DNA of 36,816 bases, from IMG/VR virus record IMGVR_UViG_2563366829_000018, positions 1 to 36,816 of that record, one strand, 5' to 3'. The notes below the pieces were generated by a model that was not told the DNA's origin, made no database searches, and was given only the letters and a program-made list of their open reading frames with translations. The stretch comes from a virus. Lineage: Duplodnaviria > Heunggongvirae > Uroviricota > Caudoviricetes. Position numbers and translations under genes: made by a program. Below are positions 18,199 to 27,188 of the stretch, one piece after another (within the stretch, counting starts at the first letter, position 1; each line of letters starts with the position of its first letter).

Positions 18199-18203
18199 GC
18201 ATG

Positions 18204-18235
18204 TAAAAAGGCCCCAACACATGTGCGTGGGGCCT
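18204..18235 (-). terminator. Intrinsic terminator upstream of the lysis cassette (7-bp GGCCCCA stem, then TTTTT on the minus strand)
   Basis: Read directly. Confidence 0.45.
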
Positions 18236-18434
18236 GAGAGTATACATGGTTTCAGTCAACTGCATGGTGCCGTGTGCCTCCCGGTGAATTCAGTACCAGC
18301 ACCTGAATCCGCGATTATCCCATATACCTACTCGCTGATTGCCCCTCCGCACAGGGGGATTCACCATGCCAGTTTCTTTTGACAAACTCCCCGCAAAACA
18401 GACAACTGTCAACCGTCTGAATTGTGAGACATTT

Positions 18435-18473: not shown

Positions 18474-18550
18474 TGGCGCGTTGTACTGGATTCGAACCAG
18501 TGACCGATTGCTTAGAAGGCAATTGCTCTGTCCGGTTGAGCTAACAACGC
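18474..18550 (-). tRNA. tRNA-Arg, anticodon UCU
   Basis: 77-nt cloverleaf folded by hand: GCGTTGT acceptor, anticodon loop CTTCTAA, TTCGAAT T-loop, encoded CCA. Confidence 0.85.
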
Positions 18551-18563
18551 AGGGTACAGATAA

Positions 18564-18640
18564 TGGACCACCATCGAGGACTCGAACCCCGCGCAACCAG
18601 CTTCGAAGGCTGGTGCTCTATCCTGATGAGCTAATGGCGG
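18564..18640 (-). tRNA. tRNA-Arg, anticodon UCG
   Basis: 77-nt cloverleaf folded by hand: anticodon loop CTTCGAA, TTCGAGT T-loop, encoded CCA. Confidence 0.8.
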
Positions 18641-18647
18641 TATGTGA

Positions 18648-18723
18648 TGGTGGCCCTTGCTGGATTTGAACCAGCGACCTGGCGATTATGAGTCGCTCGC
18701 TCTCACCACTGAGCTAAAGGGCC
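18648..18723 (-). tRNA. tRNA with CAU anticodon, ileX-like (Ile2 via lysidine, or Met)
   Basis: GGCCCTTTAGCTCAGTGGTGAGAGCGAGCGACTCATAATCGCC...CCA closely resembles E. coli ileX. Confidence 0.85.
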
Positions 18724-18751: not shown

Positions 18752-19465
18752 TCAATAATCAAGCCCTTGCCTGGATACATATCTGTCTGGCGGGAAGCCA
18801 TAATAGCGGTGAAATACAGAAATAAAGTAGGACCTGCTTGAATAACCGCATTTTTCTGCTATAGCCTGTCCATATCCATGCCGGGAACATAACATATTTA
18901 CAGCAACACGCATCCGCTCTTCCAGCAACAAGCGACTGAACATGCCCCCTTCATTTTTCAGTTTTGTCTTTAACAAACTCTCACTCATATGCAACTGTAG
19001 AGCAATCGCACCAAGCGTCCAGCTTGCTGATATATCTGTCTGAATTATCGCCCTGACTTTGGCACTTATGCTGGATAAACATCCACTTAAAAACAATGAC
19101 ATCCGTTCATCTGTTTCAAACAGAGACAGGCAGGCCATCATAAGAAACATATCCGTGGCCTCTCCGGAAAATCCCTGGCTGGTAATTAAAGCCGCAGCCA
19201 ACGCAGGATTGTTGGGTTCCAGCAACAGGTAAAGCGGAATGTCAGTCAGACGAGTCCTCGTCAGCTTATGCTGACTTTCCAGATATTGACTTACGACGGA
19301 TTCGCTTATATCGACAATTTTAACTTTGCCATAATGCATAAGGAAAAGCTCCCTGATGCATTTGGTGGCCAGAACAACTGAGCCTGGCTTAAGTGACAAC
19401 GTATCCTTTTCAAGAAAAATATTAATTGGGGAGCAAACCATGATAACTGAACAGACAACAGCCAT
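18752..19465 (-). CDS. AraC-family transcriptional regulator (prophage cargo, PatE-like)
   Basis: C-terminal AraC-type HTH (SESLLKTKLKNEGGMFSRLLLEERMRVAVNML ... GYSSRSYFISVFHRYYGFPP); AT-rich gene; start may be the internal Met at 19441. Confidence 0.75.
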   Translation of the reverse strand: MAVVCSVIMVCSPINIFLEKDTLSLKPGSVVLATKCIRELFLMHYGKVKIVDISESVVSQYLESQHKLTRTRLTDIPLYLLLEPNNPALAAALITSQGFSGEATDMFLMMACLSLFETDERMSLFLSGCLSSISAKVRAIIQTDISASWTLGAIALQLHMSESLLKTKLKNEGGMFSRLLLEERMRVAVNMLCSRHGYGQAIAEKCGYSSRSYFISVFHRYYGFPPDRYVSRQGLDY

Positions 19466-19587
19466 TATAATTTTACTTTCATTAGCAATTGGTTAGCTCA
19501 ATTATAGCCCCAAAAGGTAAATTATCATCAACACATAAGCAAAGGACTGACAGGTGTCGCCCCCCCACCAGCCGCCCATTCACCACA

Positions 19588-19613
19588 AATAAAAAGCCTT
19601 CAGGACTGAAGGC
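19588..19613 (-). terminator. Intrinsic terminator overlapping the 3' end of the 65-aa ORF
   Basis: Palindrome GCCTTCAGGACTGAAGGC followed by TTTTTATTT on the minus strand. Confidence 0.4.
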
Positions 19614-19797
19614 GTCTGTAACAACCGCACTGATAGTCTGCCAGACCCGCCATAACAAGCTGGGTCAGTATTAACTGGCAGCGTTCGCGTGAAAGGTAAG
19701 TATTCTGCGCAATCTCCCCGACTGTCGCCGGTTCGGTAACGCTTAATTCATCAAACACAACTCTGGCGGTTTCTGTCATATCCTGCTGTTTCAGCAT
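19600..19797 (-). CDS. Hypothetical small protein (65 aa), possible HTH
   Basis: ORF only; lies between two terminator-like hairpins. Confidence 0.35.
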   Translation of the reverse strand: MLKQQDMTETARVVFDELSVTEPATVGEIAQNTYLSRERCQLILTQLVMAGLADYQCGCYRRLQS

Positions 19798-19920
19798 GTC
19801 TTTTTACCCTTTCCGGTTAACGTGACATACCAATAACTCTTGTCTAAAAAGCCAGCAAGATAAAAAGCCAGTATTCACGACCACCAGCGTGTTTACTGTA
19901 CTGCACCAAGTTTACAGGTA

Positions 19921-19943
19921 CAAAAAACCCGCTCAGTGGCGGG
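19921..19943 (-). terminator. Intrinsic terminator downstream of the 205-aa cargo gene (AAACCCGC-CACUGA-GCGGGUUUUUUU)
   Basis: Read directly on the minus strand. Confidence 0.5.
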
Positions 19944-20075
19944 TTTAAGTTGTGTGGCGAAGTAACCACTCTTAACACACTAATAGCATTTTTGTTATAA
20001 CACAAGTAGCTCATTCAGTATTTTTAGAATCTTGACTTTCTTAAGCACGGCGAACTCTGAATACCAAACATAAAA

Positions 20076-20693
20076 TCAATTATCTTCCAGGCCGGATGCT
20101 ATCAACGAAAGCCTCTCAAAAAACGCTGTAGCAGCCTTGTCCAAAGTTGAATAAGTACTGTATTCTCCGTGTTCGGGACCAACCACTACCCATGGTCGTC
20201 TTTTTGGGATTCGGGACTTCTCAGAAATCACTGTTCCAGATATACCAATATCAATTGTTACACCTGTTATTATTTTCTCTTCATCTCTTTCCCTGAACTC
20301 AATTGCCATAAATGCCGTTTTTTTTCGTTTCCCGTTTTTAAAAAAATCAAATAAAGCAAAGCGATGCTCATTAAAATCAACACCCCATCGTCCTTCAGGA
20401 TAAAGGGCATGAAAGTTGTCATTTACGCTCTGCATCGTCTCATAAGCTTTAACTTCTAAATCTCCATAGTGCATAGATACCGCGCAGGAGTCACTGGGTA
20501 ACTGTATTTTCCCAAGATTGAAAACCTTTACTGCTCCAGAACTATGGCATCTTGCCCGCAATTTATCCCCATTTATACTAATCGGAGAAATATTCCTTAA
20601 TGTTCCGGGCTGGCTCCCTCCTAAGTAAACGACTGTTAAAGATTGCTTATTTTCAATTGCATCAACTAATACATGCTCTACATTTTTATCCAT
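20076..20693 (-). CDS. Hypothetical protein (205 aa), AT-rich cargo gene immediately downstream of Q
   Basis: Strong RBS GGGAGG 6 nt upstream of ATG (MDKNVEHV); no domain recognisable by eye. Confidence 0.6.
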   Translation of the reverse strand: MDKNVEHVLVDAIENKQSLTVVYLGGSQPGTLRNISPISINGDKLRARCHSSGAVKVFNLGKIQLPSDSCAVSMHYGDLEVKAYETMQSVNDNFHALYPEGRWGVDFNEHRFALFDFFKNGKRKKTAFMAIEFRERDEEKIITGVTIDIGISGTVISEKSRIPKRRPWVVVGPEHGEYSTYSTLDKAATAFFERLSLIASGLEDN

Positions 20694-20768
20694 AATAACC
20701 TCCCAATGAACAGGTATCATCAGGAGGTTATAATAAAATATGATTATTTACTTTGATTGAATTTATTA

Positions 20769-21140
20769 CTATATGTAACAATCAATTTCTAAAGATACCC
20801 CCAACATTGCCAGACAACCGTCAATAAACCCTTCAGCTTTCTGCAGTCTGATAACAACCTGATTAAGTGATATCCCCAGTTTTACCCCCAACACCCGTAA
20901 TGTAACCCCATACACATAATACATTTCCAGTAATTCGTATTGATACGGTTCCTTTTTCTTAAGAACTGTCATCGCAGAGCTAATGATCAGGCCATCGTCA
21001 TCGCTACATTGCGGGCGGGATTTTACTTTCGAAGGAATTAATCCCTTAAAACCTGCAGCAACAGATGACCATTCCACATCCTCGTGATTATTTGCCACCC
21101 ATGCCCCCCAACGTTCAAGAACCATTTGAATATCACGCAT
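20769..21140 (-). CDS. Q: Late-gene antiterminator Q (QuuD/phage-82 type)
   Basis: MRDIQMVLERWGAWVANNHEDVEWSSVAAGFKGL matches the QuuD-family N-terminus as I recall it; GGAG RBS; position upstream of the lysis module. Confidence 0.75.
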   Translation of the reverse strand: MRDIQMVLERWGAWVANNHEDVEWSSVAAGFKGLIPSKVKSRPQCSDDDGLIISSAMTVLKKKEPYQYELLEMYYVYGVTLRVLGVKLGISLNQVVIRLQKAEGFIDGCLAMLGVSLEIDCYI

Positions 21141-21157
21141 CAACTTTCTCCACAAAA

Positions 21158-22153
21158 TCAGGCCAGCACGCCTATTGCCAGCGCACGATCGATAAAACGA
21201 AATATCAGCTCCAGCTGGGAGCCATACTTCTCTTCAAATGCCACGGTATCCGCATGCAGCTCGTCGTGATGCTTTCTGCACAAAGGCAGCACGAAGAGGT
21301 CATGCGCTTTTGTACCCATTCCCCCCTGACCGTGGCCTATCAGGTGGTGGGGATCATCAGCAGGCTTTCCACAACATGCACACGGCTGCGTCTTAACCCA
21401 GCGCGTGTACTTTTCATTAACCCAGCGGCGACGTTTGGGGCGTAACATAAAAGACTCCGGCGACTCCGGATCCACTTTCAGCGCCAGCACCTTTTTCGCT
21501 TTATCCTGGATGATGCTGGTGGCAGGAACCGAAGGCACAAGGTCACTTTCCCGGGTGACAGACGGCACAACAGGCTTCGGTAATCTCAGTGCCTTACGGG
21601 CTGCACTTTCCGGTAAGGCATCCGCCAGGTCATTACGAATCAGCCACCAGCACAGTTCCGGCATTGTCACAACGTGACTGTCATCAAAACCGAGATCCCG
21701 ACGCACAACAGACAACACCCAGCGGGCACAGTTATCCGTTGCCATTGATTCCAGCCGTTCCGTGAACTGATCGCGCAGCTGGTTATCGCAGTGCCAGCAC
21801 AGACGGATTGCACCCGGAGCGTGTCGCATTGTGGTCATGTTCTCGCTGTGCCATCCGGAATGAGGCCACTGGCAGCCTTTTTCACGAAGTAACCAGCTTT
21901 CAAGACATTCCACGCCACCAGCACGACGGATCACTGCCTCATGGCGGAACACGGCCCGAACGGCAGGATCATCCGCCAGCGGTTGTGATGCCGCCGGAAC
22001 GGCACCACTGGCGAAAGATGAATAACGCTCCGGCTCAGGCTCCAGCAGGACACGCCCCTGCATAAACAGGGGCATCAGCTCTGAACCTGGCCTGAACAAT
22101 ACGATCCCCATACGCGGGGCAATTTCAGGGGTCAGTAGTGCTCTCACAGTCAC
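21158..22153 (-). CDS. DUF968-family protein (YdfU-like) with a C-terminal Cys/His cluster
   Basis: CACCGKPADDPHHLIGHGQGGMGTKAHDLFVLPLCRKHHDELH; sits immediately upstream of Q as ydfU does in Qin. Confidence 0.75.
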   Translation of the reverse strand: MTVRALLTPEIAPRMGIVLFRPGSELMPLFMQGRVLLEPEPERYSSFASGAVPAASQPLADDPAVRAVFRHEAVIRRAGGVECLESWLLREKGCQWPHSGWHSENMTTMRHAPGAIRLCWHCDNQLRDQFTERLESMATDNCARWVLSVVRRDLGFDDSHVVTMPELCWWLIRNDLADALPESAARKALRLPKPVVPSVTRESDLVPSVPATSIIQDKAKKVLALKVDPESPESFMLRPKRRRWVNEKYTRWVKTQPCACCGKPADDPHHLIGHGQGGMGTKAHDLFVLPLCRKHHDELHADTVAFEEKYGSQLELIFRFIDRALAIGVLA

Positions 22154-26031: not shown

Positions 26032-27188
26032 TTACGCCCCCTTACCTCTGAAGGGTTCAGCGACAAATTTATGAGACTGGCCAGTAGCGCCGCGTCGTTG
26101 ATGCGGTCATACAGACTTACAGCCAGCGGGGATTCGGCTTTTGCCAACATGGGATAAAGCTGCTGCAGCCAGACCTTGTGGATTACCGACAGGTGGGAGT
26201 AAAGCACGCTGGCGTTATCTGCGGCATCGCTCAGCGTGGATGGCTTTGAAAGCAGTTTTTCCATCTGGTTAAAGGCATTGATGTATGCCTCTTTGAACCG
26301 GGCAGCACGTTTACCCGTGAAACCCATAGCAAGAAACGCAAAACCGTCTCGTGTGATTTGATAGCAAAGGAGCTTGCGTGTACCACCGTTCGGTTGATTT
26401 ACCGAAATCGATGTCTCCGCAAAATTGCGGGCACAAAACTCAGGGGAACAATCCAGAGTGCGGATCTTTTTCAGCACATCGTCGTGACGCTTGGAGAAGA
26501 AGTTGGCAACAGCCAAAGAAGTGGTAACGGCCTGGCCGTTGTCAATGGTGATTTCAGGTTGAGTGAGGGCTGGGATCGTAGCCATGATGGCAGCCTCCGT
26601 TGACAGTGAAAAACTTCCACCACCGGAAACGCCAATTTCACTGGTGGTGAACTGGACGGGGTTGGCGTAACCGGCGTCAACGGAGACCGGCGCACCTTTC
26701 GGTGCCCCCGCCCAGCCCACCATAATCTGGATGTGAGCAAATGCGGACGATAAAAAAGACGCTGGCGCGTCATACATCGCCGTTGACAATTTCAGGACGC
26801 CAATCCCGGCACCCGCTTTATAAGGTGCCTGAACAGTGTAACGTCCCGGAATTGCAGAATCAATATGCTGGTGGTCCTTCACACTCAACAAAATCACGCC
26901 TGAATTTCCACAAAGGACTAAAGCACTCATGCGGGTAGTCTTTGCGAAGATAGATAACGCGCTGTGTTTCTGGCTCCCAACGAATAACATGGACATAAAG
27001 CCCTCTTCCGTCACGAAACCAGCGGTTAAGTTCCTGCACAACTCGCCCCCCACAGTCAGGTAAAGTTCTCTGTGGTTACTTACAGCCAGGTGATTTGGTA
27101 ATCTGCATTCATGCCGTAACAACAGGTGTTCAGCGACGCTGACCACCAGCTGTTGCGACAAACGGTTATTTGCCGTTAAACTATTCAT
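26028..27188 (-). CDS. Rha-family phage regulatory protein with a ~200-aa N-terminal extension
   Basis: Rha-like core (ITIDNGQAVTTSLAVANFFSKRHDDVLKKIRTL) at residues ~210-300; ATGA coupling with the CII-like gene supports the long form; an alternative start at 26585 has a GGAGG RBS. Confidence 0.55.
   Translation of the reverse strand: MNSLTANNRLSQQLVVSVAEHLLLRHECRLPNHLAVSNHRELYLTVGGELCRNLTAGFVTEEGFMSMLFVGSQKHSALSIFAKTTRMSALVLCGNSGVILLSVKDHQHIDSAIPGRYTVQAPYKAGAGIGVLKLSTAMYDAPASFLSSAFAHIQIMVGWAGAPKGAPVSVDAGYANPVQFTTSEIGVSGGGSFSLSTEAAIMATIPALTQPEITIDNGQAVTTSLAVANFFSKRHDDVLKKIRTLDCSPEFCARNFAETSISVNQPNGGTRKLLCYQITRDGFAFLAMGFTGKRAARFKEAYINAFNQMEKLLSKPSTLSDAADNASVLYSHLSVIHKVWLQQLYPMLAKAESPLAVSLYDRINDAALLASLINLSLNPSEVRGRK

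Follow-up and report, generated by a model that had tools for sequence, protein, structure and literature searches.

A WYL-domain protein without a recognised helix-turn-helix, encoded in a variable slot between gene Q and the putative late promoter of lambdoid prophages

WYL domains are otherwise found as switches that sense single-stranded DNA (ssDNA) on transcription factors governing defence and DNA-damage regulons. Binding of ssDNA by CapW and BrxR involves a serine in a loop together with basic residues surrounding the WYL strand, and the WYL repressors of the BREX and CBASS systems are released by ssDNA (PMC11662680; PMC13622015). Here we describe a 205-amino-acid (aa) protein with such a domain, encoded by an open reading frame (ORF) in the virus record IMGVR_UViG_2563366829_000018 (Caudoviricetes), whose 36,816 nucleotides (nt) are referred to as the window. 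The ORF lies between the antiterminator gene Q and a putative late promoter PR', and an original prediction made from the sequence had pointed to it as a possible cargo gene. With 100% identity, positions 19500-21200 of the window match the lambdoid prophage located at argU of Escherichia coli S88 and also other, mostly human, isolates.

Among described proteins, the factors composed of a winged helix-turn-helix (HTH), a WYL and a WCX domain (DriD, CapW, BrxR, PafBC) share the WYL domain with the ORF protein, but the N-terminal winged HTH and the WCX domain are missing from the latter. The Cas13d accessory protein WYL1, which carries an added ribbon-helix-helix domain, works with Cas13d, whereas the ORF locus has no CRISPR context. 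Short phage proteins annotated as 'WYL domain-containing' lack the 120-aa C-terminal domain of the ORF protein. With regard to location, the cargo found between Q and the lysis genes of lambdoid phages (stx1/stx2; the morons bor and lom) is similar in being AT-rich accessory DNA in the Q-to-S region, and one of the ORF carriers is itself a Stx2a prophage. However, stx is located downstream of PR' and the terminator tR' and depends on read-through by Q, whereas the ORF maps upstream of PR', outside the late operon, and uses a shared terminator. Like the defence hotspots of P2 and P4, the slot of the ORF has fixed flanks and highly variable content, and some of its alternative cargo matches defence models. 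The lambda rexAB genes reside beside the repressor, as does sieB as a further example, and distant homologues of the ORF protein are likewise encoded directly downstream of a repressor. The slot described here differs from the P2, P4 and rexAB hotspots in that it is flanked by Q and PR' and belongs to lambdoid prophages of the Q21 family. The literature searched makes no mention of WP_000360285, the RefSeq identifier of the ORF protein (annotated as 'hypothetical' or 'WYL domain-containing protein'), and neither the protein nor the slot is described in any of the papers found. A WYL domain without HTH joined to a new output domain in a single gene is thus undescribed in the libraries and papers searched, and the same holds for the Q-to-PR' slot.

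The gene and the sequences directly upstream are arranged as follows.
20693 (ATG) to 20076 (end of stop codon), minus strand: 205-aa ORF; WYL domain (aa ~3-63), linker, alpha/beta sandwich domain (aa ~87-204).
20694..20768, minus strand: AT-rich gap of 75 nt (25% GC) from Q to the ORF, without a convincing sigma-70 promoter.
20769..21140, minus strand: Q antiterminator gene (123 aa) of the Q21 family (Pfam PF06530, E 1.5e-47; phage 21 Q structures 6JNX/6P18, E 5.6e-10), labelled 'antiterminator Q family protein' in RefSeq.

Both the length of the ORF and its start about 75 nt past Q had been given by the original prediction, and the exact distance to the Q stop codon (20771-20769) is 75 nt; the prediction named no strand. 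Of 5426 complete E. coli genomes, 74 (1.4%) carry the gene, which occurs as two alleles, one with at least 99% identity (52 genomes) and one with ~78% nucleotide identity (22 genomes). An upstream in-frame ATG at 20720, which would give 214 aa, was rejected as start codon, since the 78% allele begins with a GTG equivalent to 20693 and the RefSeq protein has 205 aa. The ORF has a GC content of 39.6% (GC3 32%) compared to 51.2% across the whole window and 56% in the DUF968 gene located beside Q, in agreement with the predicted AT-richness relative to the flanking phage genes; the Q gene is likewise low in GC (42%). The ORF is thus compositionally foreign, and deviant base composition is a feature that it shares with morons. 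Between the two E. coli alleles, which differ by 21% at the nucleotide level, dN/dS is 0.23, which indicates purifying selection. Together with a family of ~950 clusters, this identifies the ORF as a real gene. It is therefore very improbable that it represents decaying or selfish filler kept by hitch-hiking with Q. Although no function is annotated anywhere, only 1.4% of the complete E. coli genomes carry the gene and a few copies are truncated or interrupted by an insertion sequence (L056), such an explanation is at odds with the low dN/dS across this divergence, the size of the family, a confident fold prediction and pocket residues that are invariant across 114 diverse homologues.

The N-terminal barrel of the protein is a WYL domain. 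AlphaFold2 modelling with 114 homologues resulted in a predicted local distance difference test score of 86 and in a model that starts with a short helix, followed by a barrel of five strands (aa 19-63), a linker of low confidence and the C-terminal domain. The Sm/SH3-like barrel superposes on solved WYL domains, and the loop serine as well as the basic residues flanking the WYL strand are conserved. Y23, G26, R33, and K56 are invariant in the 114 sequences, and S27, P29, G30, P37, and A47 are at least 90% conserved, whereas R48 is invariant only in smaller alignments. Across the family S27, R33, the K44-x-R46-x-R48 strand and K56 are kept. A search of PDB (Protein Data Bank) sequences using the single protein returned nothing at E<=10, whereas the family profile matched DriD at E 1e-4, with 'YhGGSqpGavReIaPi' aligned to 'YEGGSTPGRTREVTPL'; the GGSxPGxxRE..P motif is identical between the profile and DriD. 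A DriD-type pocket motif (Y23, G25-G26-S27, P29-G30, R33, P37, R48, K56) is thus retained, and its residues would be equivalent to S144/R164/R168/R184 of CapW (PMC11662680).

The regions on either side of the barrel depart from the common WYL architecture. Only one 12-residue helix precedes the barrel in the model, no HTH family of Pfam or NCBIfam matched, and the C-terminus is not a WCX domain. In the absence of an HTH the protein is best described as a WYL sensor with an unfamiliar output domain. This C-terminal domain (aa 87-204) is modelled as a helix, three strands, a long loop, two strands and a long helix, and carries the conserved motifs G102-W103, F-K119-N-G121-K-x-x-K125, and R166-P167-W168. 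Apparently it is non-catalytic. The small alpha/beta inhibitor proteins PsiB and AcrIIA11 as well as the frataxin/CyaY fold were matched with scores in the twilight range, 5-14% identity and no shared motifs, which amounts to a resemblance in fold class only. A Foldseek search of the viral structures in BFVD gave no match at E<=1e-3. NCBIfam had no match to the protein, and the PHROGs match (phrog_8498) has no assigned function. The profile and structure searches that the original prediction had suggested as a check thus revealed a WYL domain, and the function stays unassigned as it had stated, since none of the libraries searched (Pfam, PADLOC, PHROGs, NCBIfam) provides one.

We tentatively propose, at somewhat less than an even chance, that the ORF protein is a stand-alone nucleic-acid sensor in prophage-encoded defence. 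The ORF is a functional accessory gene of a lambdoid prophage, located in a hypervariable slot between Q and the putative PR'. Its WYL pocket most likely binds short ssDNA or a related nucleic-acid ligand, which may derive from an infecting or replicating phage or from DNA damage. The alpha/beta sandwich most likely relays the signal by binding a partner, either a protein or a second nucleic acid, and the lysogen would most likely be protected from other phages as a result, whether by an abortive response or by superinfection exclusion. This candidate role in defence is supported by association, namely by slot cargo matching PADLOC models, and by the occurrence of homologues in repressor-integrase operons and next to GmrSD, HEPN and NERD genes.

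The gap between Q and PR' is highly variable in content. Among related prophages it contains nothing (L005), a 148-aa ORF on the opposite strand (L006, L007), a CPBP protease in O157:H7 (L008), or the ORF studied here (window, L002-L004); the CPBP protease has no PADLOC match. As the slot is empty or filled with unrelated genes in sibling prophages, the designation of the ORF as accessory cargo holds. Clustering of the ORFs between Q and the PR' motif across IMG/VR loci placed the present family as the most common cargo of the slot (51 members), beside dozens of other families, many of which are encoded on the opposite strand and many of which are membrane proteins. Four out of ten cargo representatives scanned with PADLOC matched models of defence or candidate defence systems:
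slot cargo, PDC-S20/PifA-like KAP NTPase (PADLOC E 3e-177);
slot cargo, NsnA/PD-T4-2_A DUF262 protein (PADLOC E 6e-45);
slot cargo, HEC-04/OLD-like ATPase (PADLOC E 2e-36);
slot cargo, PDC-M53A (PADLOC E 1.5e-31).
The HEC-04/OLD-like ATPase adjoins a predicted cytosine-5 DNA methyltransferase, as judged by eye from the sequence. The IMG/VR loci L094-L210, in which cargo lies between Q and GTTAAGAGTGG (e.g. L194, L177, L121, L141), hold many further cargo families. Among them are large ORFs of 313, 308, 339, and 427 aa without PADLOC match, plus many small membrane proteins on the opposite strand. The unmatched cargo genes are candidates for undescribed defence genes.

An exhaustive profile search assigned 954 representative clusters (50% identity level) to the protein family at E<=1e-3 and 191 at E<=1e-30, matches covering only the first ~60 aa being counted as other WYL proteins outside the family. 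Nearly all members are 190-205 aa long. About half of the IMG/VR loci with full-length matches belong to the lysogeny operon, with the gene on the same strand and downstream of a CI-type repressor, and in most of these an integrase gene comes next (L058, L064, L074, L076/77, L082/85). In L062 the gene is convergent with an S24 repressor, and further loci adjoin terminase or tail genes. A scan of genome contigs yielded only 7 loci. In a chromosomal island of a Leucothrix genome (L087) the gene order is FRG, GmrSD_N, RiboL-PSP HEPN, the family gene, glyoxalase, NERD. Fusions of the family to other domains (P0068, P0090, P0127, P0143, P0144, P0150, P0079) add nothing beyond zinc ribbons, transmembrane anchors and a single BRCT domain, and no enzyme was among them; N-terminal membrane anchors are present in P0127, P0143 and P0144, and zinc ribbons plus a membrane segment in P0090. 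The N-terminal BRCT fusion occurs in L082 and L085 (5635-6594), in repressor-integrase operons. A split/fused pair is seen in L064 (5272-5961), where the gene upstream matches the C-terminal half of phrog_31886, the N-terminal half of which corresponds to the present family.

Several observations weigh against a role in defence. The association of the hotspot with defence is circumstantial, and six of the ten cargo representatives had no PADLOC match. The ORF itself matches no defence-system model in PADLOC-DB v2, only generic WYL models for 'Cas-associated signalling' weakly (E 1.4e-3 and 6.6e-3), and the Pfam match to WYL (PF13280, aa 8-64) is sub-threshold with 16.5 bits compared to a cut-off of 21.8 (E 0.0085). 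Across 33 distant loci only integrases and terminases recur as neighbours instead of a conserved partner gene. No effector domain is recognisable in the protein either. With regard to the own promoter and terminator typical of morons, no match to the sigma-70 consensus was found on the coding strand of the 75-nt gap, and the terminator is best read as the shared tR'. Being co-directional with Q and having no detected promoter of its own, the ORF may be expressed in the lytic cycle alone, a pattern more in keeping with a role in counter-defence or phage development.

The main rival is accordingly a counter-defence or host-takeover factor of lytic growth, which would be co-transcribed with Q as part of the early rightward operon. 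Lacking an HTH, the WYL protein would sequester or cover phage-generated ssDNA, or bind a host sensor, and thereby prevent the activation of responses to ssDNA, for example by WYL-repressed defence operons, by RecA/SOS or by other sensors, similar to PsiB, which shields incoming plasmid ssDNA from triggering the SOS response. A decoy is conceivable, as the WYL repressors of BREX and CBASS respond to ssDNA, and it would account for a protein with a sensor domain and no effector domain. The position of the ORF on the strand of Q, 75 nt downstream, with neither a detected sigma-70 promoter nor a terminator in between, points in the same direction. Nevertheless, we consider this explanation unlikely. 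Distant homologues reside in repressor-integrase operons, i.e. in a lysogenic context, and the slot otherwise carries cargo of defence type. Moreover, the gene was absent from 50,697 phage genomes, including every sequenced E. coli phage among them, save for two unrelated marine or cyanobacterial phages.

The location of the slot relative to the late promoter was derived from a conserved module downstream of the ORF.
19977..20005, minus strand: putative late promoter PR' with -35 TTGTGT (20005-20000) and -10 TAGTGT (19982-19977).
19994-19989, minus strand: conserved spacer element CAAAAA within the putative PR', a candidate Q-binding element.
19956..19976, minus strand: conserved initial transcribed region GTTAAGAGTGGTTACTTCGCC, with the predicted start site at ~19972-19970.
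19921..19946, minus strand: intrinsic terminator, best read as tR', with the hairpin AAACCCGC/GCGGGTTT and a T-run (RNA fold).
19857..19888, minus strand: second terminator-like hairpin plus T-run in the same leader, downstream of tR'.
19600..19797, minus strand: 65-aa winged-helix ORF (phrog_331), with which the conserved module past tR' begins.

Homology to Q21-family prophages with other or no cargo restarts at 19994 or 19977, i.e. ~30-50 nt ahead of the terminator hairpin, and runs on through the 65-aa ORF, which is called 'TrmB family transcriptional regulator' in O157 genomes. Thousands of E. coli prophages have the terminator and the preceding 50 nt downstream of Q, irrespective of whether they carry the ORF. 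To define the motif, IMG/VR was scanned with GTTAAGAGTGGTTAYTWCGCC and the hits were pooled with the loci in hand, giving 142 sites with 49 distinct upstream 45-mers. In 46 of these 49 sequences TAnnnT directly abuts GTTAAGAG, the A at -5 and the T at -1 being invariant. A G-T/A-n-C-G-C/T-AAAAA element at -23 to -13 is common to the upstream sequences, and the DNA farther upstream is unrelated. Such a pattern is the signature of a promoter -10 region plus a conserved spacer element. A Q21-family Q gene is located upstream on the same strand at 132 of the 142 sites, at a distance of 30 bp to 3 kb. The tR' hairpin, an 8-bp G+C-rich stem followed by a U-run (19946-19921), is kept across 62 distinct downstream sequences, which show variants of its stem and loop.

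A Q21 cassette is composed of Q, promoter, Q-binding element, and terminator, and Q-binding elements have been reported at or beside PR' (Yin et al., 10.1101/651190). The window contains a Q21-type Q, a promoter-like element and a terminator, and the spacer element is a candidate for the Q-binding element. From this sequence conservation we infer that 20005-19977 is the late promoter PR' and that the spacer element probably is bound by Q, and we conclude that 19946-19921 most probably represents tR', with a leader RNA from PR' to tR' best read as ~50 nt. The terminator would be read through by Q-modified RNA polymerase and would also stop transcripts arriving from the cargo. Since additional terminator-like hairpins follow at 19857-19888 and, past the 65-aa ORF, at 19596-19613 (minus strand), late transcription must pass several terminators. 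A PR' within the 75-nt gap between Q and the ORF was considered and rejected. No copy of the -10/A-tract/GTTAAGAG element is present there, and prophages with an empty slot carry this element 30-40 bp past Q.

As the conserved module (20005-19921) is located past the stop codon of the ORF at 20076, the ORF lies between Q and PR' and outside the Q-antiterminated late operon. Two statements of the original prediction have to be revised in this light. The terminator that it attributed to the cargo gene does fold at 19946-19921, but belongs to the PR'/tR' module, which is conserved regardless of the cargo. The proposed correspondence to the position of stx is not upheld: the Stx2a prophage L002 has the gene order Q, ORF, PR'/tR' module, 65-aa ORF, methyltransferase, tRNAs, stx2AB, so that stx2AB follows PR'/tR' and the ORF precedes the late promoter. 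A location downstream of both PR' and tR' with the need for read-through by Q, as known for stx, is therefore not given for the ORF. This corrected map, with the cargo upstream of PR' and the terminator being tR', matters for the prediction of accessory genes switched on by Q.

A variant of this module was observed in L009, which encodes a different, quuQ-type Q. Here a lambda-like PR' (TTGATT-N16-TAAATT-tgctct-AACGATGGG) immediately precedes the same terminator hairpin as in the window, and the AACGATGGG pause element is joined directly to the hairpin (2419-2530). The lambda PR' (L211, 150-200) reads TTGACT-N17-TAAATT-tgactc-AACGATGGG; it was read straight from the lambda record, as blastn of the L009 leader against the phage collection did not retrieve lambda. 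The junction in L009 suggests that late-leader modules recombine at the tR' hairpin.

No terminator is present between Q and the ORF or between the ORF and tR', and thus the cargo transcript would still terminate at tR'. Judging from this arrangement, the ORF mRNA would most simply arise by read-through from the early rightward operon, and a weak promoter may be hidden in the AT-rich gap. A Shine-Dalgarno sequence GGAGG is located at 20703-20699, 5 nt ahead of the ATG, and is part of a further feature:
20695..20731, minus strand: RNA hairpin of 15 bp with a minimum free energy of -23.3 kcal/mol, whose 3' arm holds the Shine-Dalgarno GGAGG.
The strong ribosome-binding site noted in the original prediction is hence present as a sequence, but it is buried in a conserved hairpin. 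The hairpin has a z-score of -4.8, none of 200 shuffled sequences being equally stable, and the 78% allele (L002) forms an equivalent one (-21.6 kcal/mol, z = -4.7). Hairpin and leader are covered by no known Rfam family. Sequestering of the ribosome-binding site probably restrains translation and keeps ORF synthesis low; this restraint could be relieved by RNase III processing, or by melting through an upstream ribosome or a factor. On the plus strand, the hairpin region also contains a promoter-like site close to the consensus (TGAACA-N16-TATAAT; 20707-20734), which points antisense into the 3'-end of Q and of which the 78% allele retains a part (TGAACG-N16-TACTGT). This site may be a PaQ-like antisense promoter, although sites of this kind are no more frequent in the region than expected by chance.

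Q directly precedes the ORF in every context inspected, one of which is the Stx2a prophage L002. The block from Q through the ORF and PR' to the 65-aa ORF aligns between the two alleles as one segment with 79% identity, indicating that the linkage of the ORF to this Q lineage and PR' variant (TTGTGTTATAACAAAAA) is old. Such linkage is in favour of a regulator of the prophage's own development, which would sense ssDNA from damage or replication and modulate the repressor, Q loading or late transcription via protein contacts as a lysis-lysogeny input independent of SOS. The characterised WYL proteins found in this study are regulators responding to DNA damage or ssDNA, and CI-type repressors adjoin the family gene in other phages. 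However, the protein has no DNA-binding domain, and the family also occurs in a chromosomal island and beside genes for terminase or tail proteins. In addition, in siblings that share the PR' module and have a close Q, the slot is empty or occupied by unrelated cargo, from which it follows that the ORF is dispensable for phage development. A developmental regulator thus appears improbable, and a sensor in prophage-encoded defence remains the reading that we favour.

Beyond the single gene, a wider and more doubtful proposition is that the family constitutes a new single-gene module of phage conflict, in which a WYL sensor of ssDNA is combined with a previously unseen alpha/beta output and no enzyme or DNA-binding domain, acting either in prophage immunity or as a decoy against ssDNA-triggered immunity, and that the Q-to-PR' gap is an undescribed defence hotspot insulated from late transcription. 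In the phage-borne version of WYL, with ~950 clusters, the DNA-binding part has been lost and a different output domain has been gained. The family would thus provide a case of one sensor driving a non-transcriptional response, or turned against sensing by the host. Several large cargo families in the slot have no match to known systems. The slot is bounded by the Q gene and, at its other end, by the GTTAAGAGTGG motif plus tR', and these fixed and readily recognised flanks provide a handle for mining E. coli prophages, Stx phages among them, for new defence genes.

Additional features were observed in the late leader and in the early region of the window. Between the 65-aa ORF and a tRNA cluster, the late-operon leader encodes an AraC-family regulator of 237 aa (18752-19465, minus strand) with YdeO and GadX as closest models, which we take to resemble the prophage-borne acid-resistance and virulence regulators of enterohaemorrhagic E. 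coli. The tRNA cluster (18474-18723, minus strand) comprises Arg-TCT, Arg-TCG, and Met-CAT and lies where Stx phages have the tRNAs upstream of stx. The small RNA STnc100 was identified above the Rfam gathering score on the late strand (18199-18398, minus strand), immediately upstream of the holin gene. The gathering score was also exceeded by a pair of C4 antisense RNA (26640-26727, minus strand) and isrK (26752-26828, minus strand) in the early region near the Rha/antirepressor genes.

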